This document shows positions 1 to 31,812 of a DNA stretch of 64,000 bases, piece after piece (within the stretch, counting starts at the first letter, position 1; every line of letters begins with the position of its first letter). Below the pieces are notes generated by a model, which had not been told where the DNA came from, made no database searches, and was given only the letters and a program-made list of their open reading frames with translations. The position numbers and the translations under genes were made by a program. Origin of the DNA: a virus (Duplodnaviria; Heunggongvirae; Uroviricota; Caudoviricetes); IMG/VR virus record IMGVR_UViG_3300045988_150439, one strand, 5' to 3'.

Positions 1-216
1 TGTGCATTATCAAATTGTGTACGGCATATCACCGTACTTGTAATATAGAGGTCATTGTTACTTTTTTCAACAGGCAAATACAAGCAATGATTGCCAATTG
101 TTAACCACAACCTACCATTTTACCTTTACACCGCAGCCGTAGGCATTTAGGCTATATCACATATAAGAAAACAAGTTGTTTCAGACGATAATTATATACG
201 CAAAGGGAACTCTCCA

Positions 217-885
217 ATGACCAAGATCTTTGTGGTTGGCGGCACAAAGGGCGGGCCTGGCAAATCCACCGTTGCCCAGCAAATTGCCGTTTGCCTGAAA
301 GTCAAAAAGAAGAAGAAGGTTTATATCACTGATATAGATATTCAGCGCACGACAACAAGCTGGTGTGAAGACCGTCGACAGAACGAAGATCTTGAGCTGA
401 TTCCTTTTGCATACGTTCAGGATGACATCATTAAGCACCTAAAATCGCTTCAGGGTAGAGCTGAGTTTGTAGTGGTAGATGCTGGTGGCTTCGACTCCGA
501 AATTCAGCGACAAGCGATGCTGATGGCTGACGTTATCATTATCCCGCTGCGTCCTAAGCGTCGTGATTTGAAATCTTTACGTGACATCGATCCTATTATC
601 GACAATGTTCGCAATGTAAACGATAAAGTGAAGGTCCGCGCGGTCATGAACCAGTGCCCGGCTTTGCCATCACAAGTGTCTCGCATTCTGGCGGCTAAAG
701 AGATTGTTGAGACGTTTGGAATCGAGTCTGCGCCAGTCAATCTATATAACCGCAACGTCTATGATGATGCGGAAGAGTCTGGTCGTTCTATCTTTGAAAT
801 GACCGGTAGCGAGCGCGACAAAAAGGCGGAAGCCGAGTTTGAAGAATTTGTAGATTATCTGTTGAGTCTGGAGGAAGAAGAATAA
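217..885 (+). CDS. parA: ParA/MinD-family partition ATPase
   Basis: Deviant Walker A near the N-terminus (VGGTKGGPGKST); 222 aa, typical of small type Ib ParA; followed immediately by a small partner gene. Confidence 0.65.
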   Translation: MTKIFVVGGTKGGPGKSTVAQQIAVCLKVKKKKKVYITDIDIQRTTTSWCEDRRQNEDLELIPFAYVQDDIIKHLKSLQGRAEFVVVDAGGFDSEIQRQAMLMADVIIIPLRPKRRDLKSLRDIDPIIDNVRNVNDKVKVRAVMNQCPALPSQVSRILAAKEIVETFGIESAPVNLYNRNVYDDAEESGRSIFEMTGSERDKKAEAEFEEFVDYLLSLEEEE

Positions 886-1244
886 TGTCCATGAAAATGG
901 GTGACCTAGCAAAGCGCAAAGAGCCTGATGCACCGGCTAAGAACACAACTCCTTTGCGCCAACCAGTCAGACCACAGGGACGCCCGACTCGTGGCAAAGA
1001 GAAAATTAAAAGCCGCACAATGTCACTGGAAGACGAATACTTCGAACTGCTGGAGATGATGAAGTTCATCCCTCGCTTCGAGAAGTTCACTCGTTCTGAC
1101 GTGATTCGAGCAGCCATTTTCCATCTGGCAGAGAAGTCACCGCAGGAAATCGAGGACATCGTGAAGCTTAACGAGGCGATCACAGCTGCCGACGTTACGA
1201 TGCGTACCGATGAAATTAAACGAGAGTTGATGAAGAAAGGTTGA
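885..1244 (+). CDS. small partition partner protein (ParG/RHH-like), putative
   Basis: 119 aa ORF whose start overlaps the parA stop (ATGA); basic N-terminus and helical C-terminus consistent with a centromere-binding partner. No motif-level proof. Confidence 0.35.
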   Translation: MSMKMGDLAKRKEPDAPAKNTTPLRQPVRPQGRPTRGKEKIKSRTMSLEDEYFELLEMMKFIPRFEKFTRSDVIRAAIFHLAEKSPQEIEDIVKLNEAITAADVTMRTDEIKRELMKKG

Positions 1245-1286
1245 TTATATTGGGCGTTTGTTACGCCCAATATATGAATTAAAGGA

Positions 1287-2990
1287 TTGATACTAATGGA
1301 ATCGATAGAATCATTTCTAAAAAATTTTCTAGTTTCAGATCATCGGGTTGCCGTCATAAAAGGAGATTGGGGCGTTGGTAAAACTCATTATTGGAATAGT
1401 TTTTATACTAAGCATTCTGAAGGATTAGATTTTAATGCATATTCGTATGTTTCTTTGTTTGGGGTTAACTCTATTGGTGATATTAAAAAAACTCTTTATC
1501 ATTGTGCCACACCAATTAATGAAAAGAAATATAAAGAACTAATTTTATCTGAAACGGATCGAACTATGATTCGTTATAGAAATGGGTTTTGGGGATGGTT
1601 GAAATACAACTCCTTGTCAAAATTTTTAATACATTTCGGAAAGAACGATTTTTTTGGGTTCAAAACAGATAACCTGCTGTCATCTCTTGAGTATAAATTT
1701 GTTAATAATTATTTGGTTTGTATTGATGATGTTGAAAGAAAAGGTAATTCGCTAGAAGTTAAAGAAATTATGGGGGTAATTGATGAATTAGCAAGAAGAA
1801 AAGGTTGCAAAGTTGTTCTAATTTTAAATGAAGATAATTTACATGATGAAACTGCAAAAAAACAGTTTTTAGAGTACAGAGAAAAAGTAATTGATGTCGA
1901 AATAAAATACGATCCTACGCCTGAGAAGAACTTACGTAAAGTTTTTTATGAAACTGATTCTGATTTTCTTTTGTTAAAAGTCTTAGCAAATGACTTAGGC
2001 ATTAAAAATATCCGTATATTAAATAAAATAAAAACATCTCTGGTTAATCTTAGGAATGAGCTAAGCTTGGCAGAGGATAAGGTTAGAGAAAGTTTTATCA
2101 ATAGATTGGTTCTGTTTTCAGTGGTTTACTATTCTGGTGTTCCAGGTGTTGATTATGCCTTGTTTAAAGAATCAATTAAAAACATACATGTATTTGATTA
2201 CATGTTAGATGATAAAAAGGATGATTCTGTATATTCATTTATTAATAGTCTTGATATTATTTATGAACGAGCGGAAATTGCTTTCGATGATGACATAGAT
2301 TTTTATCTCAAGAATGGTTATCTTTCTACTGAAAGCAATATTCGAGGTATAATAGAAGAAAAAAATAAACAATATAAAGAACACAAGGCTTTATGTGAGG
2401 TTAACAATGTTTGGGATATTTTTAGTGACTCATTCAAGGACAATGAATCTGAGTTTATTTCTAAGATAAAATGTGTAATTAACGACAATCTTTCACACAT
2501 ACCTGTTGCTCACTTCATAGGCTTGATTGATATCTTAAATAGATTGTTGATTGATTGTGATAGTTATATAGAGGCATATGCAGATGCCTTTGTTAGCCAA
2601 GATGATGCTTATACTGCTTTTCGGAATTTGTATGTAGAGATATTTGGTAACGAAAAGTTAGGTCTGCTAATTCAAAAAAAATTGATGGATAAGAAGCCTG
2701 AAGAGACTAATTTAGAGAATGTTTTATACAAAATAATTGAAGGCAAATTTAATCATAGTGACATAGCATATCTTAACAGTTTCTCTGAAGATGATTATTT
2801 AAAGTGGATATTATCCCGCAATCAGGATGCTTTGGATTTAGTGAGAAAGGGGTTGCTCAGATTCAAAAGTATGCAAGAACTAACAGAAGAACAGCAAAAA
2901 ATCACGAATAAAGCAATAGGTGCATTAACGAAACTGGCCTCTAGATCAAGTCTTAACAAACTACGTGTGAGCAGATTGCTTAATAATTAA
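1287..2990 (+). CDS. KAP-family P-loop NTPase
   Basis: Walker A GDWGVGKTHYW near the N-terminus, 567 aa, strongly AT-rich relative to neighbours; domain order matches the KAP NTPase family (PifA-like). Confidence 0.55.
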   Translation: MILMESIESFLKNFLVSDHRVAVIKGDWGVGKTHYWNSFYTKHSEGLDFNAYSYVSLFGVNSIGDIKKTLYHCATPINEKKYKELILSETDRTMIRYRNGFWGWLKYNSLSKFLIHFGKNDFFGFKTDNLLSSLEYKFVNNYLVCIDDVERKGNSLEVKEIMGVIDELARRKGCKVVLILNEDNLHDETAKKQFLEYREKVIDVEIKYDPTPEKNLRKVFYETDSDFLLLKVLANDLGIKNIRILNKIKTSLVNLRNELSLAEDKVRESFINRLVLFSVVYYSGVPGVDYALFKESIKNIHVFDYMLDDKKDDSVYSFINSLDIIYERAEIAFDDDIDFYLKNGYLSTESNIRGIIEEKNKQYKEHKALCEVNNVWDIFSDSFKDNESEFISKIKCVINDNLSHIPVAHFIGLIDILNRLLIDCDSYIEAYADAFVSQDDAYTAFRNLYVEIFGNEKLGLLIQKKLMDKKPEETNLENVLYKIIEGKFNHSDIAYLNSFSEDDYLKWILSRNQDALDLVRKGLLRFKSMQELTEEQQKITNKAIGALTKLASRSSLNKLRVSRLLNN

Positions 2991-2998
2991 GTATTCAT

Positions 2999-3053
2999 GA
3001 CCTGTTTCTGTATATAAATAATAAGTAACTTATTAAATATACGGAAGCAGGTC
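2999..3053. repeat. 55-bp nested palindrome / hairpin directly after the KAP NTPase stop
   Basis: Arms gacctgtttctgtatat / atatacggaagcaggtc flank an AT-rich loop that itself contains the perfect palindrome aataagtAacttatt; a second copy lies at 53263-53324. Confidence 0.55.
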
Positions 3054-3159
3054 TTTCAAAAGATACCCACCAGAACAACTCCCTTCCGTTTCCACTTCCA
3101 AAAACTGCCACCAATCGCTATCATCAGCTCATTGTGATAAGTAAGTAACTACCTACCAG

Positions 3160-3909
3160 GTGAGCCACATGAGCCAAATCTTTTTCGACACCATCGACAA
3201 CGACCAGTACGACTTCATGACAGAGTGGAATACCGCTGTTATGGATAAGTGGGTTGCTGAAAACATTGGTTTGTCGCGCTGCAAAGACGAGGCTGAACTC
3301 TTCGATACGAAGTGGTTTGATTACCGCGACATGCATCCTCTTATGGCCACCTGTCTGTTTACGGAGGCATACAAACGTCAGTACTCAAATATCATGCTGA
3401 CGCACGGTCGCGAACACTTTGAAACAGCTCCGTTCACCACCGGGTTAAAACGCCTGCCTTATCAGGAGTTGTCGACTGCCAATAAAACGTCGCTATGGAA
3501 AGCACGCCAGTTTGCTGACCGCTATTGCTGCTCATACGACTACTTTATCTCCACCGTTCTTTCCGCAGCTGCACGACGTCTGTGGGACAAGCTGCCTCGC
3601 CCACAGCATTTGTGGCAGCCAGAACTGATTGAGATATTTGAAGAGAAATTAGCCAGACGCGCAACAACCCGTCTGGATGACTCTCTGGTTAGCTTTAAGC
3701 ATATAGGAGACATGCAGTTCAACCCGATCCAGGAAAGCTATTTTGAGTGGATTCTGGAGCGTTTACGCACCATCCCCCGCAGCAAGCGCATACGCGCAAT
3801 TTTCTCCGCTATCTGGCTAATGGAAATCGTTCCAGAGCGCCTTATTTCCGCCCACTTTCCAGAAGAACTGGAAGAAGCACGGCGGTTTATTGATCCCCTA
3901 TCCAATTAA
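3160..3909 (+). CDS. hypothetical protein
   Basis: 249 aa ORF in the coding strand of the block; GTG at 3160 or ATG at 3169; preceded by a taagta-type palindromic motif at 3135-3158. Confidence 0.45.
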   Translation: MSHMSQIFFDTIDNDQYDFMTEWNTAVMDKWVAENIGLSRCKDEAELFDTKWFDYRDMHPLMATCLFTEAYKRQYSNIMLTHGREHFETAPFTTGLKRLPYQELSTANKTSLWKARQFADRYCCSYDYFISTVLSAAARRLWDKLPRPQHLWQPELIEIFEEKLARRATTRLDDSLVSFKHIGDMQFNPIQESYFEWILERLRTIPRSKRIRAIFSAIWLMEIVPERLISAHFPEELEEARRFIDPLSN

Positions 3910-3952
3910 CTAATACTAGAAAACAATTTGTTTAAAAAACAAAGGAAAGCAC

Positions 3953-5293
3953 ATGACCGAACTTTGCCATACAGGACGCGGGCTGTCCGAAGAGTTTGAT
4001 GAAGATTTCCAGAACAGACTGACGGCATATTTTTGTCGTGATCACGAGTTTCTTACTCGTGCGGGAGATCTGGTTGTGCCTAGCCAATTTGCCAATGCGG
4101 CCAATGCCATATTGGTTAATATGGTTTCGGGCTATTACCGTATGTACAAGAGCGCGCCCTCTTCATCTGCAATTCTGGATATGCTTAAGCGTGCGAAACG
4201 CGATAAGACTATCCGTGAGGAACTATTCGCCGATGTTGTTGCTGCGTTTAAGCGCATCCTTGCAGAAAAATTGTCCGATACCTCGTACATGGTTGACCAG
4301 GTATCAACCTTCGCAAAAAGCGTAGCGTTTGATGATGCTCTGATTAAGGCTGCTGAACTGAAAGAGAAGGGCGACTTTCAGGGGGCGATGGCAATCATGG
4401 CCAAGGTTCAGCAGATTGGATCGAACGAAGCGACCGGAATCTATGACTACTACACCTCAGCAAGTGAGCGACTGAAAGCGCGTGAATATGAGGCCTCAGA
4501 GGAGTATGTGCCAAACAGTATTACAACTGGACTCCCTCTTCTCGATAGGTTGCTGTACCAAAAAGGCTGGGCAAAGCGCGAAATGGTGCTCTTCATGGGG
4601 TTCGCTAAATCCGGTAAATCGACCGCAATGGGTGAGTTTTCCATAAACGCAACGCTTGCTGGCTACAATGTTCTGTATCTCTCGCTGGAGGTTCACACCA
4701 CCATTTTATCCGACCGTTTTGACGCAAGATTGTCGGAGACAGAAATGTCCAAGCTGGTGGAACGGCGCGATGAGGTTCATCGTAAGTTGGCAGAGTTGGG
4801 AGCCACGAAGGGGATTGGTAGTTTGTGGGTGGTTGAGCGTCCGTCAGGAAGTATATCACCGGCAGATCTGGATCGTATGCTCAACAGCATGAAAGCCAAT
4901 GGCATGGTGCCTGACATGGTTGTTGTCGACTACGCAGATTTGATGCGTGCCAGTTATGACCTTCGTGATGATCGCGCCAACATTCGTAGTATCTACACCG
5001 ATTTGCGTGCTCTTTATGACAAGCATAACGTTGCTGGGATCACGGCATCGCAGACAAACCGTGAAGGTGGCGCGTCAGAAGTTGCCACAATGATGCACGC
5101 TGCCGACAACATCGAAAAAGTACGTATTGCTGACCTGGTAATAACGATCAACAAAACCGAAGAAGAAGAAGCGAAAGGAGAGGCTCGTCTCTACTTTGCT
5201 GGTTCACGTAACCAGCAGGGAGGGATCAGCATTCGCGTTAAACAAAACCTCGAACAAATGCGCTTCATTGAGCGAATCTTAGACGTTACCTAA
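3953..5293 (+). CDS. DnaB/gp41-like replicative DNA helicase
   Basis: C-terminal RecA-fold with Walker A GFAKSGKST and Walker B-like MVVVDYADLM; sits directly upstream of a primase-like gene. Confidence 0.6.
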   Translation: MTELCHTGRGLSEEFDEDFQNRLTAYFCRDHEFLTRAGDLVVPSQFANAANAILVNMVSGYYRMYKSAPSSSAILDMLKRAKRDKTIREELFADVVAAFKRILAEKLSDTSYMVDQVSTFAKSVAFDDALIKAAELKEKGDFQGAMAIMAKVQQIGSNEATGIYDYYTSASERLKAREYEASEEYVPNSITTGLPLLDRLLYQKGWAKREMVLFMGFAKSGKSTAMGEFSINATLAGYNVLYLSLEVHTTILSDRFDARLSETEMSKLVERRDEVHRKLAELGATKGIGSLWVVERPSGSISPADLDRMLNSMKANGMVPDMVVVDYADLMRASYDLRDDRANIRSIYTDLRALYDKHNVAGITASQTNREGGASEVATMMHAADNIEKVRIADLVITINKTEEEEAKGEARLYFAGSRNQQGGISIRVKQNLEQMRFIERILDVT

Positions 5294-10854: not shown

Positions 10855-10929
10855 GATGGTGTAGCTCAGCGGTAGAGCAGTTGGCTGTTAACCAACTGGT
10901 CGGTGGTTCGAATCCACCCACCATCGCCA
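10855..10929 (+). tRNA. tRNA-Asn (anticodon GTT)
   Basis: Hand-folded cloverleaf: acceptor gatggtg/caccatc, D-arm gctcagcggtagagc, anticodon loop ctGTTaa, T-arm ggtggttcgaatccacc, encoded CCA. Confidence 0.8.
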
Positions 10930-10932
10930 ATG

Positions 10933-11007
10933 CCGGTTTAGCTCAGTTGGTAGAGCACCTGCCTTGTAAGCAGGATGTCAGCGGTTCGATCCCGTTAACC
11001 GGCACCA
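10933..11007 (+). tRNA. tRNA-Thr (anticodon TGT)
   Basis: Acceptor gccggtt/aaccggc, D-arm gctcagttggtagagc, anticodon stem cctgc/gcagg with loop ctTGTaa, T-loop ttcgatc, encoded CCA. Confidence 0.75.
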
Positions 11008-11026
11008 ACACAACAGGTAAGAGCAT

Positions 11027-11100
11027 TGGGCGAATCGGCGATACTGACCCACAAGCCCGTAAATCGATAGAGTCAGACCAGTGCTCTTACCGTTGTGAGG
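11027..11100 (+). repeat. long-range hairpin element ending in cttaccgttgtga
   Basis: gtaagagcattgg pairs with ccagtgctcttac (one G-U) enclosing about 48 nt; not foldable as a tRNA. Confidence 0.4.
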
Positions 11101-11156
11101 AAGTGCAGCTCTTTGAAGCAACCAGAAGATAAGCATCTGGCTTCACAACACAACGA

Positions 11157-11219
11157 TAAGATCATTACGGTTAATCGTCGTTCATGTGCACAATGACTGG
11201 TCGAAAGGTAGTGATCTTA
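11157..11219 (+). repeat. long-range hairpin element ending in cttaccgttgtga
   Basis: taagatcattac pairs with gtagtgatctta (one G-U); same 3' tail as the element at 11027-11100. Confidence 0.4.
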
Positions 11220-11327
11220 CCGTTGTGATGAATGCACAGGCTGATGTGCCGCAACTACAGTAGTGCGCGCTTTGCGGGGCTTGCTACAACCCTGTGTCGG
11301 AGTTCAGCACCGACCATCACAATAGCT

Positions 11328-11414
11328 GGAGAGTAGGGAGCATGGTGCTCAAGCGGTCTTGAAAACCGTCCCATTGCGCAAGCGATGATGGTTCGATTCC
11401 ATTACTCTCCGCCA
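11328..11414 (+). tRNA. tRNA-Ser (anticodon TGA), long variable arm
   Basis: 87 nt; acceptor ggagagt/actctcc, anticodon loop ctTGAaa, long extra arm, T-loop ttcgatt, encoded CCA. Confidence 0.7.
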
Positions 11415-11417
11415 GAC

Positions 11418-11493
11418 ACAGCGTTGAGCGGTTTGGCCTTTTAATCACCCAGATTAAGACTCCGCTAACATAAACCAGACCGCTCAACGCTGT
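11418..11493 (+). repeat. long-range hairpin element immediately 3' of tRNA-Ser
   Basis: acagcgttgagcggt (11418-11432) is the exact reverse complement of 11479-11493. Confidence 0.45.
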
Positions 11494-11567
11494 GATAGAC
11501 AATTACGGCAGACGTTCTTAACCATAGCTTGCTAACATCCTAGCAACACTTTTTTTCAGCGCAAAAT

Positions 11568-11592
11568 TCAAAGGGGCTTCGGCCCCTTTTCT
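11568..11592. terminator. bidirectional Rho-independent terminator
   Basis: GC hairpin aaaggggcttcggcccctttt with A-run before and T-run after; lies between the tRNA block and the 3' end of the minus-strand gene 11593-12804. Confidence 0.6.
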
Positions 11593-12804
11593 TCAAAAAA
11601 GTTTTATAAATTCATAATTCTGGTCAATTAAGGATTCAATACACACCATGCAAAAATCTACATCGTTAAAATCAGGTGTGTAATATTCATCCTCATAACA
11701 TTCATTTAGACCTTCAATCAATTTTTCTTTAAAAACTCCCCACGTTTCAATATGAACCATTTCCATATAAGGCGCATGTGTATGTACTTGCAATACATCC
11801 CAGGTGTCTATAACCTCGATCCGCGGCTTGCAATTAATTTTTTCTAAATATGCCCTCCCAGAATTGTAAATTTTCGACATTGATGCCCCAAAACCTGATG
11901 GTTGGTAATGAGTGTAAATGTCATAAATTTTTTGTCCTATTCTAGGGAGTTGAGAAGCATTGGATATTTGTGGCGAATGAAAGTATCGCTCTATGGAAGA
12001 AAACGCAGAAACATTAACTAGAGTAATCGTATATGGTGCTAAAGTTCTCTCGTTCAAATTTCTACATAAAATAGCAAACCCATGGCTATTAGTCTTTTCA
12101 CCGTCTGAGGACATTTTTGCCATGCTGGCTTTAATAACATTCAATTTCGAATGTAAACGAGAAGTGGAAGTCGGTTGATTATACATTTCATCATCATACA
12201 AACATATATGAAACCCGCCAAGATGACGAAATGAGAACTTGAGTGCTTCTTCCGCAATAACTAATTTATTAATATCTAAAGGAGTAAGTGATACGTTACC
12301 TTGTAAATCATAGCAAGGTTCTAAACATAGAAAGTTTTTCTTCTGCCACACAATCATATTAAAAATAAAGTGTCTAACCAAAGGTGGCCAGTCAGGTGAT
12401 ATAAGTACATTGGTAATATCTCCATCAGACAAGTATGACAAGTAACTTTTTAGTTCCGCAGCATATGCCACTAGCTCAGTTCCAGCTTCCCTTGTTGGTG
12501 TTGAAAAATTTTTTAACTCAATAAGAACTAAGGATTCATTCTCTGTTGAATAAGCAACGACATCAGGTCTTAATATCTCAGATTTTGTTGCTGAGATATT
12601 TTCATCATCTGTCATTAAATGTAACAATGTTATATTCTTTAAACAAAACTGATAACTCTCCTTAATTTTTTTCTCTTCGGGTCTTTTCGGATTAAATTCA
12701 TTTAATTTATCAATATTGATGATTGAATTATATAATCCATCTTGATCAGATAATTTGTCAATTATCCAATTTTGCATTTCCTTTTCGCTTAAAAATATTG
12801 ACAC
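11593..12804 (-). CDS. PD-(D/E)xK nuclease-like protein, putative (second gene of an AT-rich two-gene module)
   Basis: 403 aa; N-terminal region carries a PD-x14-ExK arrangement (RPDVVAYSTENESLVLIELK); GTG start with GGAG RBS; strongly AT-rich; 26 bp downstream of its partner. Confidence 0.4.
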   Translation of the reverse strand: MSIFLSEKEMQNWIIDKLSDQDGLYNSIINIDKLNEFNPKRPEEKKIKESYQFCLKNITLLHLMTDDENISATKSEILRPDVVAYSTENESLVLIELKNFSTPTREAGTELVAYAAELKSYLSYLSDGDITNVLISPDWPPLVRHFIFNMIVWQKKNFLCLEPCYDLQGNVSLTPLDINKLVIAEEALKFSFRHLGGFHICLYDDEMYNQPTSTSRLHSKLNVIKASMAKMSSDGEKTNSHGFAILCRNLNERTLAPYTITLVNVSAFSSIERYFHSPQISNASQLPRIGQKIYDIYTHYQPSGFGASMSKIYNSGRAYLEKINCKPRIEVIDTWDVLQVHTHAPYMEMVHIETWGVFKEKLIEGLNECYEDEYYTPDFNDVDFCMVCIESLIDQNYEFIKLF

Positions 12805-12830
12805 TAATTAGGCTCCCGTTAAACCAAAAA

Positions 12831-13652
12831 TTAAAAATCTTGCTTTACTTTATCCATAGTCAGAATTTTGCTAATAATTGAAGATTCAAATCCATCTAAA
12901 CCTGAGAGAAAGTTAATTAGCTTTTGGATATGTTGTTCTTTAGGTATAAGTATATATTTTATATCATTGAACTCAAAATCAATGCCAAACTTTGAAAATT
13001 TTGAGCTAATTTTTGCTTTGTCATCAGAAGTGATAACACGCTCCAAACTCAGACTAGGCCATAAATCACCAATAAAAGGAGCTGGCACATAACGCCACTC
13101 TTTCTCGTCTGCATATATATAATTCTCTATTGTTTTATTATCTTTTCGCTCTAGCTTGCCTCTGTAATTTTTCATATAACGCAGTAAATTATATAGATCA
13201 GAATATTCTGCTTTCAATTTCTCAAACTCTATTCTGTTTTTGGTATCTAAATTTCCTCTAGCCTTCCAAAGCGGCACCAACTTTTTTTTAATAAGTCGAA
13301 TTCTGGCATTGTATTTAGAAAATATTTCACTGCTCTTATTCATATATAGAACTGGGTGTAGACCTTTCTTTTCCGCCCAAGACTTAGTTAGCCCAAGACC
13401 GAATTCCCCATATTTTCCGCTATGATCTCTGATTTGTGATAGTTTTATGTCACAAAACGATACCATTGGTACTGCAAACCTCCTGCGTCCCCCGACTCCT
13501 CTTATTTCCTCGCGAGCAAGAAATGGTTTAAAATATTTCTCAGCCAATATGCTATAGAAAGCATCTTCGTTTTTTGTAAAATGAAACAACGTGGTTGGAT
13601 GAAGACTATAAACAGATTCAACATTCGCATCAGGATTTTCAAGGATAGTCAT
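12831..13652 (-). CDS. Abi-like hypothetical protein (first gene of the AT-rich two-gene module)
   Basis: 273 aa from the ATG at 13652 (RBS aaggtg); AT-rich, Lys-rich; gene sizes and order resemble two-gene abortive-infection modules such as AbiGi/AbiGii, but this is an unverified recollection. Confidence 0.35.
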   Translation of the reverse strand: MTILENPDANVESVYSLHPTTLFHFTKNEDAFYSILAEKYFKPFLAREEIRGVGGRRRFAVPMVSFCDIKLSQIRDHSGKYGEFGLGLTKSWAEKKGLHPVLYMNKSSEIFSKYNARIRLIKKKLVPLWKARGNLDTKNRIEFEKLKAEYSDLYNLLRYMKNYRGKLERKDNKTIENYIYADEKEWRYVPAPFIGDLWPSLSLERVITSDDKAKISSKFSKFGIDFEFNDIKYILIPKEQHIQKLINFLSGLDGFESSIISKILTMDKVKQDF

Positions 13653-13801
13653 TTTACACCTTGTGGAAAGCCAGTTTAGTTCTGTAAATAGTATCACACG
13701 ACAGGCGGCTATTCTTCTATCAATAAAGGATAGGTAAGCACTTACTTTTTACGCGCGTTAATTGTATAGTTCTTTCGGATACTCACTTGAAAGGACTCAA
13801 T

Positions 13802-13945
13802 ATGGGAAATAAATGTAAACATGCGCGTCGCGCATCTCGTCAGGTGCAGAAGTCAAATCCATACATTCACGAGCACTACCACCTCAGCTCTTTCACTAAC
13901 CGCTACACGTTCCCCAGCGAAGCGCATAACGAGGCAAGGCAATGA
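13802..13945 (+). CDS. small basic protein (47 aa), putative
   Basis: ATG with aagga RBS; stop overlaps the start of the glutaredoxin gene (ATGA), suggesting translational coupling. Confidence 0.25.
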   Translation: MGNKCKHARRASRQVQKSNPYIHEHYHLSSFTNRYTFPSEAHNEARQ

Positions 13946-14187
13946 CGATCACTATCTACGGACGAGATAACTGCTCATACTGCAAACGTGCGGTCGAGCT
14001 GGCGAAGCAACTAAAGGGACATGGCTACGGTGATTATGAGTACATCGACATCACCACTGCCGGTATCGACAAGAAAAAACTAAGTGAAATTGTTGGTAAA
14101 CCGGTAGAGACTATCCCCCAGGTACTGATCGATGGCCAACCGATTGGCGGATACACAGAATTTGCTGCTTTTGCGAGCACTCTGTAA
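13942..14187 (+). CDS. glutaredoxin (NrdH/NrdC-like redoxin)
   Basis: 81 aa with CSYC active-site motif in the thioredoxin-fold position (YGRDNCSYCKRA). Confidence 0.65.
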   Translation: MTITIYGRDNCSYCKRAVELAKQLKGHGYGDYEYIDITTAGIDKKKLSEIVGKPVETIPQVLIDGQPIGGYTEFAAFASTL

Positions 14188-14282
14188 TACAATACGGCTC
14201 CTTTTGGGGCCATTTATTATTTGTAGCTTTCATCAGCACAGCGTACACTTAGTTACGAGCCATTGAGTAGTTAAGAGGTTTT

Positions 14283-14891
14283 ATGCGTTTAGAAAATTGC
14301 CTAGAAGATATGAGTGTCATTAGCAATGCCCTTGCTACTGTGACCTCTAACGCTTCACGCTTTTCAAACGCAAAGCCTACAGCTAAATCTGGGCGTGATT
14401 TTATTGAACCGCGTGGATATCGACGCTTCCGTGGCACGATGAAGCCCTCTGCGAAATTCACAGGATTCAAAACACAAACCTATGTGAGCACTGCGGCTAT
14501 TCCTGTTCAAGAGAACCGCGATGCGGCACAGCTGGCAAAGATTGAAAGCAAGCTCGCAAAATTGACGGCGAAACACGTTCGCTTAGCCCATGCCATCTCT
14601 GGATGGAAAGCGGAAAAGATTCGCAGCAACTTCGGTGAAAGTCGTTACGAAGAACTGAAGAACGTTGACCTGACCATTCGTGGTTTGGAGGGATTCGTTA
14701 ACAAGTTGATTCGCGACTCTGAGCAACCTCATCCATATTTGAAACGCTTGAGCGATTCTGTAACTGAGTATCGTTTAGCTATCTCTGATCTGCTATTGAT
14801 TTTAAATCAGTGTTTTAACGACGTAAACGTCATCGAATCGCAGACTGGCCTCATTGATGAGGACGTCTTCGCCAACTTCTCATTCCATTGA
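14283..14891 (+). CDS. hypothetical protein (possible antitoxin-position partner of the YafO-like gene)
   Basis: 202 aa ORF with aagagg RBS, ending 10 bp before the YafO-like gene; no recognised fold. Confidence 0.4.
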   Translation: MRLENCLEDMSVISNALATVTSNASRFSNAKPTAKSGRDFIEPRGYRRFRGTMKPSAKFTGFKTQTYVSTAAIPVQENRDAAQLAKIESKLAKLTAKHVRLAHAISGWKAEKIRSNFGESRYEELKNVDLTIRGLEGFVNKLIRDSEQPHPYLKRLSDSVTEYRLAISDLLLILNQCFNDVNVIESQTGLIDEDVFANFSFH

Positions 14892-14900
14892 GGTTGAACG

Positions 14901-15311
14901 ATGAAGATCACATGGAACAGTGATAGTTACGCCCAATTTTTAAAGCCGACCTTCGATATAAAGCCTGACTTAGAGATTACGTTACTCAACGATTTCAAGT
15001 CGTTTAAACAAGGCATGTACCCAGCCCTATTCGGCAAAGATGGCCCGTATACGGCTCCTGGTGCTATCGTGTCCTCCCGCGTTTATCACGTTCATCTCTT
15101 GTTCACGAAGCAAGAACGAACCAGCAGCCGCAGCAGATTCAATTGCACAAGCGACCGTGCACTCGTTTACAGTCAACATGCACATTTCCAAGATGTGTAT
15201 AGCCTATTGGCAATCTTCCCTAACAACGCACATCAGTACGCGAAAGATCCAAAAATTATGGTCGATATCGCTGCCTACGCGGCCGCATTTCAAGCTCTCA
15301 CTAACCCTTAA
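14901..15311 (+). CDS. YafO-family toxin-like protein
   Basis: 136 aa; segments FGKDGPY...VYHVHLLF, RALVYSQHAHF and LLAIFPNNAHQYAKD...AAYAAAF parallel E. coli YafO as recalled from memory (not searched). Confidence 0.45.
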   Translation: MKITWNSDSYAQFLKPTFDIKPDLEITLLNDFKSFKQGMYPALFGKDGPYTAPGAIVSSRVYHVHLLFTKQERTSSRSRFNCTSDRALVYSQHAHFQDVYSLLAIFPNNAHQYAKDPKIMVDIAAYAAAFQALTNP

Positions 15312-21151: not shown

Positions 21152-24100
21152 ATGAAGGCACTGATGGTTCGAACTGACTTCTCACTTGGGGAGTCGGCTC
21201 TAAAAGCAGAAAACGCGGTGAAGATTGCCAGAGAAGCTGGCTACACCGCTGTAATTTCAGCAGATAGCATGAATATTGCAAGTGTTATTCCACTACAACG
21301 TGCCGCTGGTGACGACATGGCGGTTATTTGTGGTGTGAAACTAAACATTGTTGATGATCCCACATACGAGCACCGGGCTAAACTTGCTAAAGAATCTATG
21401 AGATGTATGGAATCATTAGAGCGGGGACGCAACTACTCGTTTACCGCTCTAATTAAAAATGAGCAAGGATATCGCGACATCTGCGAACTAATGACGGCGG
21501 CCAACACACGAGAACAGTTCTACTTTGTACCGCGTCTCTCGCTCGAACAGTTGGTTTCTACATATGCCAAAGGCAACATCATCCTGCTTACTTCCGACAT
21601 CGGTAGCGTGTTCCAACGCAACGATTTTGCAAAAATCATAAGCACACTGATTACAGCGGGTGGAAAAGACAACTTCTATAGTGTGGTTTATCCGCACCCT
21701 ACCCCATTCTACGACCAGATTAACGTCCGGGCGATGAAAGTCGCCAGCGCACTGAAAATAGAGCCAGTAGCGTTTTATCCCGCTTATTACGAATCGATCG
21801 ACGATGCAGACATTAAAGACATTGCGCACATGGTTACGAACAACATCAAAATCGACCAGCCGCATCGTCTGCGTATCCCCCACCAGCGAGATAACGCCAT
21901 CAATGGTCGTCGCCATCTCCTTGAGGCGCTTAAAGCCTTCTCCGTTCGCATGGATGTGCCGGTAACAGCTGCAATGGCCTCAACAACGCAGGACTCCATT
22001 ATCGATGCCTGCACATGGCGCTGGCATGAATTGCCACCAGCACTGCCCAAGATGGCAGACGACGAACCTGCAACGCTGATGAAACTGGCTGTTGAAGGGC
22101 TGCGTAAACGTCTTACCACAAAAGAGTTTGGATACACACCACCTGCTTCTGAGAACAGGGTTTATGTTGAGCGGCTAAAGTACGAAATGGACACGCTGAC
22201 TCGCCTGGGATTCTGTGGTTACTTCCTGATGGTACGCGATCTGATGAATCATAGTCGTGAAACTGGCATTCCCGTTGGGCCTGGTCGTGGTTCCTCTGCC
22301 GGTTCTCTGGTGGCGTGGTGCATAGGCATAACCAACGTCGACCCAATCCGTCACGGTCTTCTGTTTGAGCGTTTCATCAACCCTGAGCGTCTCGACTTGC
22401 CGGATGCGGACTTGGACTTCAGCCAGGCACGTCGCCATGAGGTGATCGAGTATCTGAATGAACGCTACGGCGAAGATTACGTTGCAGGCATTCCGAACTT
22501 CACCTATCTGGGCGCGGCATCTGCGCTGCGTGACACTGCACGTATTTACGGTGTCGATGCTGCGGATATGGCGGTATCCAAAGAGTTCAAGAATATGGAG
22601 GACGACAGCCTGTCTCTGGAAGAGCTGCGCGAGCAACTGGCCAGCCTGGACAAATACGCCACGAAAAACCCGGAAGCGTTCAAAGCGGCGTGTAAGCTGC
22701 AAAGCCTGATGCGTGGTTTTGGTCGTCACGCTGCGGGGATGATCGTCGCTGGCGTTCCATTAGTAGAGCGCACGCCCGTCGAGCTGCGTGGCAATGCTCG
22801 ATGTATTGCGTTCGATAAACGTTACTGCGAGGCGATGGGGCTGATTAAGTTGGACGTTCTCGGTCTGGCAACACTCGATCTTCTGGATAGCGCGAAACGC
22901 TACATCAAAGAGAGCACCGGTGAAGACATCAATCTCGACGCTATCCCACTGGACGATCGCAAGGTTCTGGATGGGTTCGCTGCAGGGTACACGCAGGGCG
23001 TATTCCAGCTGGAGTCCGGCCCCATGCGTAAGCTGCTTAAAGATCTGGGCGGTGGCATCGAGCCAATGAGTTTCAAAACCGTTGTCGCAACTACCGCCCT
23101 CTTCCGACCGGGACCGATTCAATCCGGCATGTTGGATGACTATGTTTCCGTTGCGAAAGGATTTATGACGCCTACATCACTACATCCTGTCTTGGATGAA
23201 CTGACCTCTGAAACAAATGGAGTGATTCTCTATCAGGAACAAACGATGAACGCAACAAGGCTTCTTGCTGGTTTCACAATGGCTGAGGCGGATGGTGTGC
23301 GTTCAGCAATCGGTAAGAAGAACATGGAAAAGATGAGGAGCATGGGTGAGAAATTTGTCATTCAGGCTCAAGCTGGGTGGATCGACGTAGAGCTTGAAAA
23401 TGGCGCAATACAACGGATTCATCGCGCAGAACATTTTAAATGCGAGGACGGTACTCTGAGGACAGTTGAAGAGGCGTTGGAGCATGGAGTGAAGCTGCCA
23501 ATGCCAGTTGTGCGCGTTACAACGTCACATCCGGGTCTGTCTGAGACGAAGGCAAAAGAGATATGGACTGCATTTGAGAAAAACGGAGCCTATCAGTTCA
23601 ATAAATCACACTCCGTTGCTTATTCTTTAATCAGTTATCAGTCTATGTGGCTAAAGACGCACTACCCTGCTGAGTTCTTCGCAGCTGCGCTCACCATTCT
23701 GGGCGAGGATAAGCATCAGGGGCTGGTGAAGGATGCGCTGACCTATGGCATTCGCGTATTGCCACCAGACGTTAATGTGTCATCTAACCGAATTGAGATC
23801 CGCACACTCGAAGACGGCAGTCAGGCACTGTATGCGCCATTCTCTGCTGTGAAAGGCTGTTCTGAAAATGGTTGTCAGGCAATTATGCGTGCGCGTGAGA
23901 AAGTTGGTGGCAAATTCGAGTCAGTGGCACAATTCGATGAAGCGGTCGAGAAGCGTGCATGTAACAGTCGTGTACGCGAGTCGCTTCATAAAGTAGGGGC
24001 TTTTGCGTCAATTGAGCCAGGCAGTCTGCCAGCAACTGATCCTGAACGACTGCGCGACCAGGCTGAGCTGATGGGCAATCTCATCATTGACGCTGTTAAA

Positions 24101-24670
24101 GCATCACGTCCGTTCGAAATGAATCCTAAGCGTTCTGCCGAAATCAACGTACTCATGACACGTATGGCGGTTGAAATGGGCTTGGGTGAGGAGTTGATAC
24201 GCCCGACTATTGGTATTAAACCCAAAATCATGATCATTCTGGACAATGCGAACGGCAATGACGCTCGTACCGGCTACTTCATGGAGAACGGATACGACGA
24301 CTTTAAGGCAAAACTACTGACAGTTGGAGATCTGCGCATGGGCGATCTTTATGTCACGGGTGTTTGTAAGAAGGTTAAGGACAAAGAGAAAGACTATACC
24401 AAAGACGAGATAGGCCAGTTCACAGACTTTATGCGGGAAGAAATTAATCTTGTACGACCAACCTACATTTTGACGTGTGGTAGTCGTTCAACCGCACTAT
24501 TTAACAATAAGAGTAAACCATCAGATCTGATTGGTCGTAAGGAGTACTTCCCAGAGCTTGATGCAACCGTCTTCTACGGATTTAACCCGAATATCCTGTA
24601 CTTCCGACCGGAAGAAGGAGAGCGACTGGAGGCCATTCTGGCTGATATCGCGGAGACAATAAATAAGTAA
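21152..24670 (+). CDS. dnaE: DNA polymerase III alpha subunit (DnaE-like replicative polymerase)
   Basis: 1172 aa; conserved Pol III alpha core segments (GCSENGCQAI..., FNKSHSVAYSLISYQSMWLKTHYPAEFFAA); the N-terminal PHP-like region lacks the usual His cluster. Confidence 0.7.
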   Translation: MKALMVRTDFSLGESALKAENAVKIAREAGYTAVISADSMNIASVIPLQRAAGDDMAVICGVKLNIVDDPTYEHRAKLAKESMRCMESLERGRNYSFTALIKNEQGYRDICELMTAANTREQFYFVPRLSLEQLVSTYAKGNIILLTSDIGSVFQRNDFAKIISTLITAGGKDNFYSVVYPHPTPFYDQINVRAMKVASALKIEPVAFYPAYYESIDDADIKDIAHMVTNNIKIDQPHRLRIPHQRDNAINGRRHLLEALKAFSVRMDVPVTAAMASTTQDSIIDACTWRWHELPPALPKMADDEPATLMKLAVEGLRKRLTTKEFGYTPPASENRVYVERLKYEMDTLTRLGFCGYFLMVRDLMNHSRETGIPVGPGRGSSAGSLVAWCIGITNVDPIRHGLLFERFINPERLDLPDADLDFSQARRHEVIEYLNERYGEDYVAGIPNFTYLGAASALRDTARIYGVDAADMAVSKEFKNMEDDSLSLEELREQLASLDKYATKNPEAFKAACKLQSLMRGFGRHAAGMIVAGVPLVERTPVELRGNARCIAFDKRYCEAMGLIKLDVLGLATLDLLDSAKRYIKESTGEDINLDAIPLDDRKVLDGFAAGYTQGVFQLESGPMRKLLKDLGGGIEPMSFKTVVATTALFRPGPIQSGMLDDYVSVAKGFMTPTSLHPVLDELTSETNGVILYQEQTMNATRLLAGFTMAEADGVRSAIGKKNMEKMRSMGEKFVIQAQAGWIDVELENGAIQRIHRAEHFKCEDGTLRTVEEALEHGVKLPMPVVRVTTSHPGLSETKAKEIWTAFEKNGAYQFNKSHSVAYSLISYQSMWLKTHYPAEFFAAALTILGEDKHQGLVKDALTYGIRVLPPDVNVSSNRIEIRTLEDGSQALYAPFSAVKGCSENGCQAIMRAREKVGGKFESVAQFDEAVEKRACNSRVRESLHKVGAFASIEPGSLPATDPERLRDQAELMGNLIIDAVKASRPFEMNPKRSAEINVLMTRMAVEMGLGEELIRPTIGIKPKIMIILDNANGNDARTGYFMENGYDDFKAKLLTVGDLRMGDLYVTGVCKKVKDKEKDYTKDEIGQFTDFMREEINLVRPTYILTCGSRSTALFNNKSKPSDLIGRKEYFPELDATVFYGFNPNILYFRPEEGERLEAILADIAETINK

Positions 24671-29472: not shown

Positions 29473-31812
29473 ATGGCAAAAGGAAAATCCGCACTGGCAC
29501 TTGCTCTGAAAAAGAAAATCGGTAGCAACGACGAAATTCAGAAAGTAACTCATTGGATTGACACAGGCTTTCCTCCGTTAAACAAAGCTATTTCCGGTCG
29601 TTACGATGGCGGTTTCCCATGTGGTCGTATCGTAGAAGTATTCGGGCCACCAAGCGCGGGGAAATGTGTTACCGCAGACACCATGCTGCTGACGGAGCGT
29701 GGAATGGTAACAGTGAAAGAGTTGTTTGAGATTGAAGGGTACAAAGCGACATGCACTACTCGCGATGTAGAGCATAACGTTGGACTCATCAATGAAAATG
29801 GCGTGATAGAGAAGACCTCACACCTGACATGGAACAACCGTCGCAAATTCAAGCGTATTAAGCTGGCATCAGGCGGTTATATCGAGGCTACGTTCCGTCA
29901 CCCAATCCGTGTGGTTGACGACTTAGGTAATGTCGTCTGGCGACATGCTGAAAAAATCAGTGTAGGCGACACGATTCCTTCAATGGTTGGCACACATCAA
30001 TTCGGCGATCAGCACCTGGATGCCAATATCGCAAAACTGATGGGCTATTTAATTGCTGACGGATACGTGGCCTCTGAAAATTCAGTGAATTTTTCTAACA
30101 CAGATCCTTTCATCAAGGATGAGTACTACCGCCTCATTTCGCTGGTATCAGACAAGATGCCAGTTACGAGAAAACATAACGGCTCGGAAGACCATGTGCT
30201 GTTTAGCAAAGAGGTGCGTTCGCTGCTTTTTAAAGAATATGGTCTGGAGTATGAGAAAGCTGCTGGCAAGCAGGTTCCGTTGAGTGTGCGTCGCGCCAAT
30301 AGCGAGGCTCAAATTGCATTCCTTCGCGGCTACTTTGAGCTGGAATGCCACGTCAATGATGGTCGCTGCATTGAGGTTGTGAGCGCGAGTGGGCTGCTGC
30401 TACAGCAAATTCGCCTCATGCTCCTGAATCTGGGGATTACGTCAACTATCTCTGAAAAACACGTCGCGGGTTATGAAAATACATATTACCGGCTGTCATT
30501 CAGTGGCTCTAATTACGACCTTTTTCTGTCAACGATTGGTTTCGAATCTCCGGCACGTTTATCAGTGGCAACCAAACGGGACATTGGTTTTGACCGCACT
30601 TACTCAGGCTATGTTCCGCACATCAGCGGCTTAGTGAAATCACTCTACGAGTCGCTCACCAAGACCACCCGTGAAGACTACGCTCTGGTAGACCACGTTA
30701 TTGGCCGCGGCGATCGTGTCGGAATAGACAAACTGCGAGAAATCTATGTCTCCTTCATTGGCAGAAAGAATCGTTTTAACGAGCATCTGTTTGCACAACT
30801 GGCAGCGGTAATTGGCTCTAACTTGTTCTACGACGAAGTCGTGGCTATTGAGGAAGGTGAAGCACCAACGTTCGACGTAGCGATGCCGGAAACACACTCT
30901 TTCTGGTCTAACGGGATTATCAGCCACAACACATTCCTTGCAACAGCAGCGATGATCTCCGCACAGAAACAAGATGGTCTGGCGGTATTCCTCGATCATG
31001 AGAACAGTTTTGACGTTGGCCTGGCTGTAGCCAATGGCCTGAACGCAGATGAGGATGACGGTCAGTGGGTATACAAGCAGCCAGATACCTTCGAAGACTC
31101 TGTAGAGTTGATCGGCACAATACTTAAATTGGTTCGTGATGAAGAGCTTATCCCCGAATCAGCACCTATCTGTATCGTGGCTGACTCTCTTGCGTCTATG
31201 GTTCCGAACTCCAAAGCCGAGAAGTTCGAAAAGATGGCTGAAGGCACTGCCAAAGACAAAGATCAGCTAAACATGAACGACAATACGGCACTGGCTCGTG
31301 CGACGAGTGCGAACTTCCCTACTCTGGCTTTGTGGGCACGCAAATACAACGCCTGCATCATCTTCTTGAATCAGGTTCGCACAAAAATCGGTGTAATGTT
31401 TGGCGACCCTACTACGTCGCCAGGTGGAGATTCACCGAAGTTCTACGCTTCTGTACGTATCCGTCTTGGTGCATCGGTGATGAAGGATGGTAAAGAGAAG
31501 ATCGGCCAGGACGTAGGCGCAGAATGCATCAAAAACAAAGTTGCACCACCGTATGGCAAATGCACCTGGAAATTCTACTTCGATCCTACTCGTGGCCTCG
31601 ACGTTATCGAATCGCTCGTCGAGTACATGCTGGAAGAAGGATACCTGCCAAAGAACGCCAGCGGGCGAGTTGAAATTGGTGACAAGAAATACACCAAATC
31701 GCAGATCGTCGAGATGTATCGGGAGAAGCCATTAGCAGAAATCATTGCTGCGTTACAGACGATAGATGACCGACGAGAGAAGACATCACCAACAGAAGAA
31801 CTAGAAGATTAA
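29473..31812 (+). CDS. recA: RecA-family recombinase interrupted by an intein
   Basis: N-extein ends GRIVEVFGPPSAGK; C-extein begins TFLATAAMISAQKQ and carries ICIVADSLASM, IIFLNQVRTKIGVMFGDPTTSPGG and KFYASVRIRL, all RecA signatures. Confidence 0.8.
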   Translation: MAKGKSALALALKKKIGSNDEIQKVTHWIDTGFPPLNKAISGRYDGGFPCGRIVEVFGPPSAGKCVTADTMLLTERGMVTVKELFEIEGYKATCTTRDVEHNVGLINENGVIEKTSHLTWNNRRKFKRIKLASGGYIEATFRHPIRVVDDLGNVVWRHAEKISVGDTIPSMVGTHQFGDQHLDANIAKLMGYLIADGYVASENSVNFSNTDPFIKDEYYRLISLVSDKMPVTRKHNGSEDHVLFSKEVRSLLFKEYGLEYEKAAGKQVPLSVRRANSEAQIAFLRGYFELECHVNDGRCIEVVSASGLLLQQIRLMLLNLGITSTISEKHVAGYENTYYRLSFSGSNYDLFLSTIGFESPARLSVATKRDIGFDRTYSGYVPHISGLVKSLYESLTKTTREDYALVDHVIGRGDRVGIDKLREIYVSFIGRKNRFNEHLFAQLAAVIGSNLFYDEVVAIEEGEAPTFDVAMPETHSFWSNGIISHNTFLATAAMISAQKQDGLAVFLDHENSFDVGLAVANGLNADEDDGQWVYKQPDTFEDSVELIGTILKLVRDEELIPESAPICIVADSLASMVPNSKAEKFEKMAEGTAKDKDQLNMNDNTALARATSANFPTLALWARKYNACIIFLNQVRTKIGVMFGDPTTSPGGDSPKFYASVRIRLGASVMKDGKEKIGQDVGAECIKNKVAPPYGKCTWKFYFDPTRGLDVIESLVEYMLEEGYLPKNASGRVEIGDKKYTKSQIVEMYREKPLAEIIAALQTIDDRREKTSPTEELED
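29665..30930 (+). mobile_element. intein with LAGLIDADG homing-endonuclease domain, inserted in the RecA P-loop
   Basis: Begins with Cys (CVTADTMLL), ends SHN followed by Thr; two LAGLIDADG-type motifs (LMGYLIADGYV and FLRGYFELECHV); removing the 422 codons restores GPPSAGKT. Confidence 0.75.

Follow-up and report, generated by a model that had tools for sequence, protein, structure and literature searches.

A probable bifunctional intein at the Walker A K/T site of a RecA-like recombinase gene in SSU5-type phage-plasmids

Introduction

The P-loop is the best-known hot spot for intein insertion. The RadA intein of Pyrococcus horikoshii has been shown experimentally to splice under the control of its extein and in a temperature-dependent manner. 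This intein (c1) interrupts a RecA-superfamily ATPase at the homologous point, where the P-loop ends, and is followed by a +1 Thr, as is the insert described here; unlike the latter, it is an archaeal mini-intein that lacks an endonuclease.

The inteins of RadA and RecA were mined by Topilina, Novikova, Stanger, Banavali and Belfort (2015, NAR 43:6631; PMC4513877). Their Table 1 lists an intein designated c2 (65-486) in the RecA of eight E. coli strains, two Enterobacter strains and one Salmonella enterica strain (PMC4513877). The c1 and c2 inteins have little sequence similarity, and independent invasions were inferred (Topilina et al. 2015, PMC4513877). In that study, c2 was obtained by database mining only and was treated as a 'bacterial RecA' intein of E. 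coli; no mention of SSU5-like phage-plasmids was found there, and the paper holds neither a population or homing analysis of c2 nor an experiment on it.

The mycobacterial RecA inteins occupy sites other than the P-loop (PMC4513877). PI-MtuI of Mycobacterium tuberculosis is likewise an intein with a LAGLIDADG-type endonuclease inside RecA. However, it lies at insertion point a (aa 252-691), at the monomer-monomer interface of the product of the chromosomal recA, whereas the intein described here lies in the P-loop. SSU5, to whose relatives the present locus belongs, has been cited as a model phage-plasmid (PMC7969092).

Results

Structure of the interrupted recombinase gene

In the window, the whole stretch of 64,000 nucleotides that was analyzed, the ORF 29473..31812 on the + strand encodes a protein of 779 aa and constitutes a RecA-like recombinase gene with an insert. 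The Walker A residues GPPSAGK are aa 58-64 of the ORF and are followed directly by the insert, aa 65-486 (nt 29665..30930, 422 codons, 1266 nt), which splits the motif as GPPSAGK/T, the slash marking the insertion point here and below. The bounds are exact because Cys65 (CVTADT...) follows GPPSAGK and ...IISHN ends at aa 486, after which comes Thr. The first-pass annotation had placed the insert at these positions, with a Cys at its start and SHN before a Thr at its end, and translation confirmed the placement to the base. The features of the gene are as follows.

29473..29664, + strand: N-extein, aa 1-64, ending in GPPSAGK, aligning to E. coli RecA up to K72
29665..30930, + strand: probable intein of 422 aa, HINT splicing domain with a nested LAGLIDADG homing endonuclease, assigned from profiles and natural empty alleles
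29665..29667, + strand: Cys1 codon TGT, N-terminal splicing nucleophile, block A
29890..29901, + strand: block B, T76-F-R-H79 (TxxH), aligned to TGNH and TYNH of Herelleviridae phage inteins
30037..30063, + strand: first LAGLIDADG motif, LMGYLIADG, intein aa 125-133, with candidate catalytic Asp132
30319..30348, + strand: second LAGLIDADG motif, FLRGYFELEC, intein aa 219-228, with candidate catalytic Glu227
30871..30930, + strand: blocks F and G, FDVAMPETHSFWSNGIISHN, with Asp404, His411, penultimate His421 and terminal Asn422
30931..31812, + strand: C-extein, aa 487-779 and stop codon, first residue Thr (ACA)

The first Thr of the C-extein (ACA) is the +1 nucleophile for splicing and at the same time the Thr of the Walker A motif. 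The GC content of the insert (0.46-0.50) does not differ visibly from the composition of its flanks.

The complete set of class-1 splicing residues is present: Cys1, T76-x-x-H79, Asp404 and His411 of block F, His421-Asn422 of block G and the +1 Thr. The insert scored above the curated cut-offs of the splicing-region profiles, with 46.6 bits for Intein_splicing (Pfam PF14890, cut-off 35.8) over aa 9-422, 35.3 bits for the NCBIfam model TIGR01445 intein_Nterm (cut-off 24.5) and 16.9 bits for TIGR01443 intein_Cterm (NCBIfam, cut-off 15.6). The Pfam profile LAGLIDADG_3 (PF14528) gave 65.8 bits (cut-off 22.5) over intein aa 215-292. Matches of this strength are not expected by chance. The intein reading of the first-pass annotation, including its call of two LAGLIDADG-type motifs, was thereby borne out. 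With its N-terminal nucleophile, the TxxH motif, His-Asn followed by Thr, the profile matches and a host protein restored on excision, the insert has the properties of a class-1 intein. In NCBIfam it also matches the intein parts of many archaeal intein-containing proteins.

The endonuclease region has the sequence characters of a two-motif, monomeric LAGLIDADG homing endonuclease, an acidic residue being kept in each motif (Asp132, Glu227) and conserved in distant phage relatives. In alignment, the first motif, LMGYLIADG, falls on LGYLIADG in an archaeal V-ATPase intein (PDB 7qsu), and Glu227 of the second is conserved in the inteins of phages Twort and fHSPT3. The second motif ends in Cys at a position where Gly is usual.

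When the insert was removed in silico, GPPSAGKT was restored and a protein of 357 aa with a contiguous RecA core was obtained, as had been predicted in the first-pass annotation. No gap is needed to align the spliced extein with E. coli RecA through K72/T73 (GRIVEVFGPPSAGK/TFLAT vs. GRIVEIYGPESSGK/TTLTL; the corresponding motif in RecA is GPESSGK/T). The catalytic Glu (FLDHEN vs. FIDAEH in E. coli RecA), Walker B and the L2 loop, all contained in the C-extein, are conserved. The Pfam RecA profile gave one unbroken match of 145.7 bits (cut-off 27) and PHROG 97, 'UvsX-like recombinase', matched at 1e-91, while the score against the bacterial RecA equivalog TIGR02012 was 153.7 bits and thus below the cut-off of 325.3. 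Taken together, these profiles indicate that the host gene is a RecA-family recombinase of the phage type, a paralogue and not the housekeeping RecA. PHROG 9666 is a full-length model of the intein-bearing 779-aa protein.

Relation to described inteins

The first-pass annotation had implied that an intein at the K/T site of the P-loop was new. This did not hold, as the same element is present in Table 1 of Topilina et al. (2015, PMC4513877) and in RefSeq names. The c2 RecA intein and the window intein share the P-loop K/T site, the coordinates 65-486, the host family and the host genera. The window intein lies at the end of the P-loop, spans aa 65-486 and occurs in Enterobacterales hosts (E. 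coli, Enterobacter, Klebsiella, Salmonella-type plasmids and others), and is almost certainly the c2 intein itself.

The nearest relatives outside the Enterobacterales are P-loop inteins of the Herelleviridae, which are 31-34% identical to the window intein over the full 422 aa, have its architecture and are likewise inserted at GK/(T/S) in the P-loop. They are found in phages of Gram-positive bacteria, mostly in a helicase and, in Bacillus phage fHSPT3, in RecA; further examples are the ORF006 helicase of Staphylococcus phage Twort and many Listeria, Enterococcus and Bacillus phages. With an identity of about 33%, they form a distinct allele family.

The best PDB sequence matches were the archaeal inteins 7qsu and 7qss (V-ATPase), PI-PkoII (2cw7) and PI-PfuI (1dq3). 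The matches cover the endonuclease core with both LAGLIDADG motifs (E = 8e-8 to 7e-3), but they are distant and hold at the level of domains only, the host proteins and insertion sites being different. Kinship to the P. horikoshii RadA intein was considered and rejected, since this intein was absent from the PDB sequence matches at E <= 0.01, in agreement with the published independent invasion. The NCBIfam model of the mycobacterial intein-containing RecA (NF007072) gave 100.8 bits vs. a cut-off of 1024.

Distribution on phage-plasmids

The gene in the window is 99.3% identical to its homologue in Escherichia phage Cyrano. Relatives of the gene were found in phage SSU5 and on plasmids of E. 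coli, Klebsiella, Enterobacter, Salmonella, Yersinia pestis, Citrobacter and Cronobacter, and almost all of the plasmids that carry them were typed as non-mobilizable IncFIB. The gene had 252 matches in complete E. coli genomes, every one of them on a plasmid and none chromosomal. The neighbouring genes encode a 5'-3' exonuclease, a DnaE-type polymerase, a ligase, tRNAs, an integrase, RepA and an SPFH protein; this neighbourhood is the backbone of the SSU5/pHCM2/pLF82 phage-plasmids. The RecA of an enterobacterial mobile element proposed in the first-pass annotation is thus the product of a gene belonging to an SSU5-like phage-plasmid.

The occupied allele was present in 114 of the 250 complete E. 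coli genomes that have the gene (~46%), in 237 of 721 PLSDB plasmids with the gene, and in the isolated phages Cyrano, PhiR41_1 and vB_KpnS_p4727. The exact 779-aa sequence occurs on 425 contigs and its 90%-identity cluster has 1496 members. In RefSeq and NCBI records, some copies are named "intein-containing recombinase RecA", and the labels "hint domain-containing protein" and "LAGLIDADG family homing endonuclease" are also in use. Two partial matches, H69 and H111, were considered as a different intein variant, which was rejected because they are remnants of the gene truncated by IS elements.

Empty alleles and divergence of the hosts

Natural alleles that lack exactly the 1266 nt were found in three extein lineages, those of E. 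coli, SSU5/Enterobacter and Klebsiella, and encode proteins of 357-359 aa. An example of the empty site is GGTCCTCCAAGTGCAGGGAAA/ACGTTCCTTGCAACAGCAGCG; the E. coli version reads …GCAGGGAAA/ACGTTCCTT… and the SSU5 version …GCCGGTAAA/ACCTTTTTG….

Between lineages the extein DNA is 81-86% identical, whereas the intein DNA across the same lineages is 96.8-99.8% identical. Inside one lineage, occupied and empty partners are 96-99% identical. The extein pS between lineages is ~0.6 vs. an intein dS of 0.09. The near identity of inteins that reside in diverged exteins indicates that the intein is far younger than the divergence of its hosts and was transferred among them. The synonymous sites of the exteins are close to saturated between lineages.

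All nine occupied alleles examined have an intact intein of 1266 nt without a stop or frameshift. For the whole intein dN/dS is 0.14-0.16, and for its endonuclease part 0.18, which is evidence of purifying selection. The extein pN/pS is 0.02-0.04, a value that reflects divergence mostly older than the invasion.

Flanking bases

The bases next to the insertion site were compared in 19 alleles, 9 of them occupied and 10 empty. At position +3, the synonymous third position of the +1 Thr codon, every occupied allele has A (ACA, 9/9) and every empty one has G or C (ACG/ACC, 10/10) (Fisher p = 1.1e-5, in a small sample of 19 alleles and uncorrected for their relatedness). Among the flank positions of these 19 alleles, only the +3 base remains linked to occupancy.

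The window allele has the SSU5/Enterobacter states at positions -19 to -7 and from +3 to ~+36, and there differs from its nearest empty E. coli relatives. Two other occupied E. coli alleles retain the native E. coli-type left flank, and the empty allele p500465_152 has an N-extein identical to that of the window, with the window-type left flank. The synonymous variants of the left flank (GCG GGG AAA) were examined as intein-linked markers and rejected in the larger sample, in which there were two occupied exceptions and one empty exception. Tracts longer than +3 are lineage-specific. In ET350, a clean recombinant allele, the only crossover lies within the intein, between nt 444 and 804. The pattern of alleles fits recent homing with short and variable co-conversion tracts together with ordinary recombination, a fit that does not in itself prove endonuclease activity.

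Discussion

The anatomy of the insert, its catalytic residues and the precise presence/absence polymorphism of natural alleles are direct observations. The element is very probably a canonical bifunctional intein, in which a HINT domain with a nested two-motif LAGLIDADG endonuclease is inserted at the Walker A K/T site of a recA-like gene of an SSU5/pHCM2/pLF82-type phage-plasmid.

The expected course of splicing can be drawn from established intein chemistry. The 779-aa precursor would be unable to bind ATP properly because its P-loop is split, and would be ATPase-dead. An N-S acyl shift at Cys1 would be followed by transesterification, in which the +1 Thr accepts the N-extein; cyclization of Asn422 would then free the intein, and an O-N shift would give a 357-aa RecA-like protein with GPPSAGKT in addition to the free 422-aa intein, with expected masses of about 39 and 48 kDa, respectively. 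The predicted junction peptide of the spliced product is ...GPPSAGK-TFLATAAMISAQK. As for mobility, the population data suggest that the free intein or the precursor may cut the empty recA alleles of related phage-plasmids that are co-resident in the cell. Repair templated by the occupied allele would carry over the intein together with, at a minimum, the last base of the +1 Thr codon, which amounts to homing. About half of the alleles are still empty, and homing would therefore be slow, or blocked at many sites. Spread between lineages may in part represent ordinary homologous recombination between co-resident phage-plasmids, of the kind seen in the ET350 crossover.

It is quite unlikely that the intein is competent in splicing but has an inactive endonuclease, its distribution being the outcome of vertical descent and ordinary recombination between co-resident phage-plasmids instead of homing. 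The ET350 allele, a simple recombinant with one crossover inside the intein (nt 444-804), would be accounted for in this way, as would the inconsistent co-conversion of the left flank, the persistence of empty alleles at roughly one half, and the Cys that replaces the usual Gly in the second LAGLIDADG motif. However, the endonuclease region has been kept under purifying selection (dN/dS 0.18) without a stop or frameshift in 9 alleles, and both candidate catalytic acidic residues are retained in it and in distant phage relatives. Moreover, near-identical inteins reside in exteins near synonymous saturation with a converted flank of as little as 3-30 nt, and plain recombination at 81-86% flank identity is a poor explanation for inteins this similar combined with tracts this short. 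Far less probable still is the reading in which the insert stays in the protein as a fixed in-frame domain without splicing; occupied alleles would then have lost RecA function, and the 779-aa product would work solely as an endonuclease or in the manner of a maturase. The naming of the whole protein as 'LAGLIDADG family homing endonuclease' in RefSeq would suit such a role, but the residues for all four splicing steps are present and conserved, and the occupied exteins are full length with Walker A and B, the catalytic Glu and the L2 loop intact. The low extein pN/pS also argues against loss of function, although most of that divergence predates the invasion, and viable isolated phages carry the occupied allele.

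It is unlikely, but worth considering, that the nearly 50:50 mixture of occupied and empty alleles is not a transient stage of invasion but a maintained state resulting from cleavage-resistant empty sites, a conditional splicing switch, or both. Resistance may be conferred by synonymous bases at +3 (ACG/ACC in place of ACA), -4 and -7 that block cleavage; if so, there would be an arms race over the target site within a clinically widespread family of phage-plasmids. For the RadA intein at the same site, action as a conditional post-translational switch has been shown. By analogy, splicing here may be gated by redox state, temperature or the SOS response, such that the recombinase is ATPase-dead in the plasmid state and is released on induction.

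The feature itself is already known, both from the literature of 2015 and from RefSeq names, and for this reason the present analysis adds little as a discovery. The additions are modest: the placement of the gene in SSU5-type phage-plasmids, and population data in favour of homing. Splicing or DNA-cleavage experiments on the P-loop c2 intein were not found in the literature searched, and since experimental work on it was not found, the endonuclease may still represent a new enzyme for characterization. Among the papers found, only Topilina et al. (2015) treats the intein; none ties it to SSU5, pHCM2, pMT1, pLF82 or phage-plasmids, and an earlier population or homing analysis of the c2 intein was not found in the searchable literature.

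The context is corrected in that the "E. coli RecA intein" resides in the recombinase of an SSU5/pHCM2/pLF82-type phage-plasmid and not in the chromosomal recA. Natural occupied and empty alleles are available in one tractable host, and the locus is therefore a convenient system for the study of homing, co-conversion and possible conditional splicing in the P-loop. Furthermore, the frequent RefSeq label "LAGLIDADG family homing endonuclease" for the 779-aa protein conceals the recombinase gene.

Alleles and remnants of the intein-containing recA gene

Two related plasmid loci carry recA alleles that differ from the intein-containing allele of the window.

L014 (CP025897.1), about 1049..2125: intein-less recA allele of p500465_152
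L022 (NZ_CP100967.1), 51..2390: recA allele of E. coli ET350, on a 324-kb plasmid

The ET350 allele is cleanly mosaic: it matches the window type in the N-extein and in intein nt 1-444, and the SSU5/Enterobacter type in intein nt 804-1266 and at the beginning of the C-extein, indicating that a single crossover occurred within the intein. The ET350 plasmid has three times the normal length, suggesting a cointegrate. In the empty allele of p500465_152, the 192-nt N-extein is identical to that of the occupied allele in the window, but the bases of the right flank (ACG, T225, A228) match the empty type. This allele may represent the ancestor of the window allele before invasion, or it may have arisen through intein loss or recombination.

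Truncated copies of the gene were found on unrelated plasmids, IncF and IncFIB/IncHI1B.

L002 (NZ_CP075717.1), 2572..3966: 5'-truncated, intein-containing recA remnant
L003 (NZ_CP029688.1), 2518..3765: 5'-truncated, intein-containing recA remnant

Both remnants start within the intein. Neighbouring them are fragments of IS elements or transposases, along with a type III restriction-modification/DEAD-box helicase gene. They are annotated as 'hypothetical protein' or 'recombinase'. The entire 779-aa precursor (window 29473..31812 and its RefSeq homologues) is usually named 'LAGLIDADG family homing endonuclease' in RefSeq (PGAP); therefore, in surveys that rely on annotation, the occupied phage-plasmids look as if they had no recombinase gene.

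Other features of the element

The gene for the DnaE-type polymerase was compared with its counterpart in NZ_CP134368.1, a 99%-related plasmid.

Window 21152..24670, + strand: DnaE-type polymerase gene, a single intact ORF of 1172 aa
L011 (NZ_CP134368.1), 10887..15199: split dnaE locus

Whereas dnaE is unbroken in the window, in NZ_CP134368.1 it is interrupted, with part of dnaE followed by an HNH endonuclease ORF and then by a C-terminal piece that carries a pseudogene annotation. There, 1154 nt containing the HNH gene stand in place of window nt 23178..23540 (363 nt). This difference is a second homing-endonuclease-type polymorphism within this phage-plasmid family.

The element also has a cluster of tRNA genes, which is annotated in a related plasmid as well.

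Window 10855..11414, + strand: three-tRNA cluster, Asn(GTT), Thr(TGT) and Ser(TGA)
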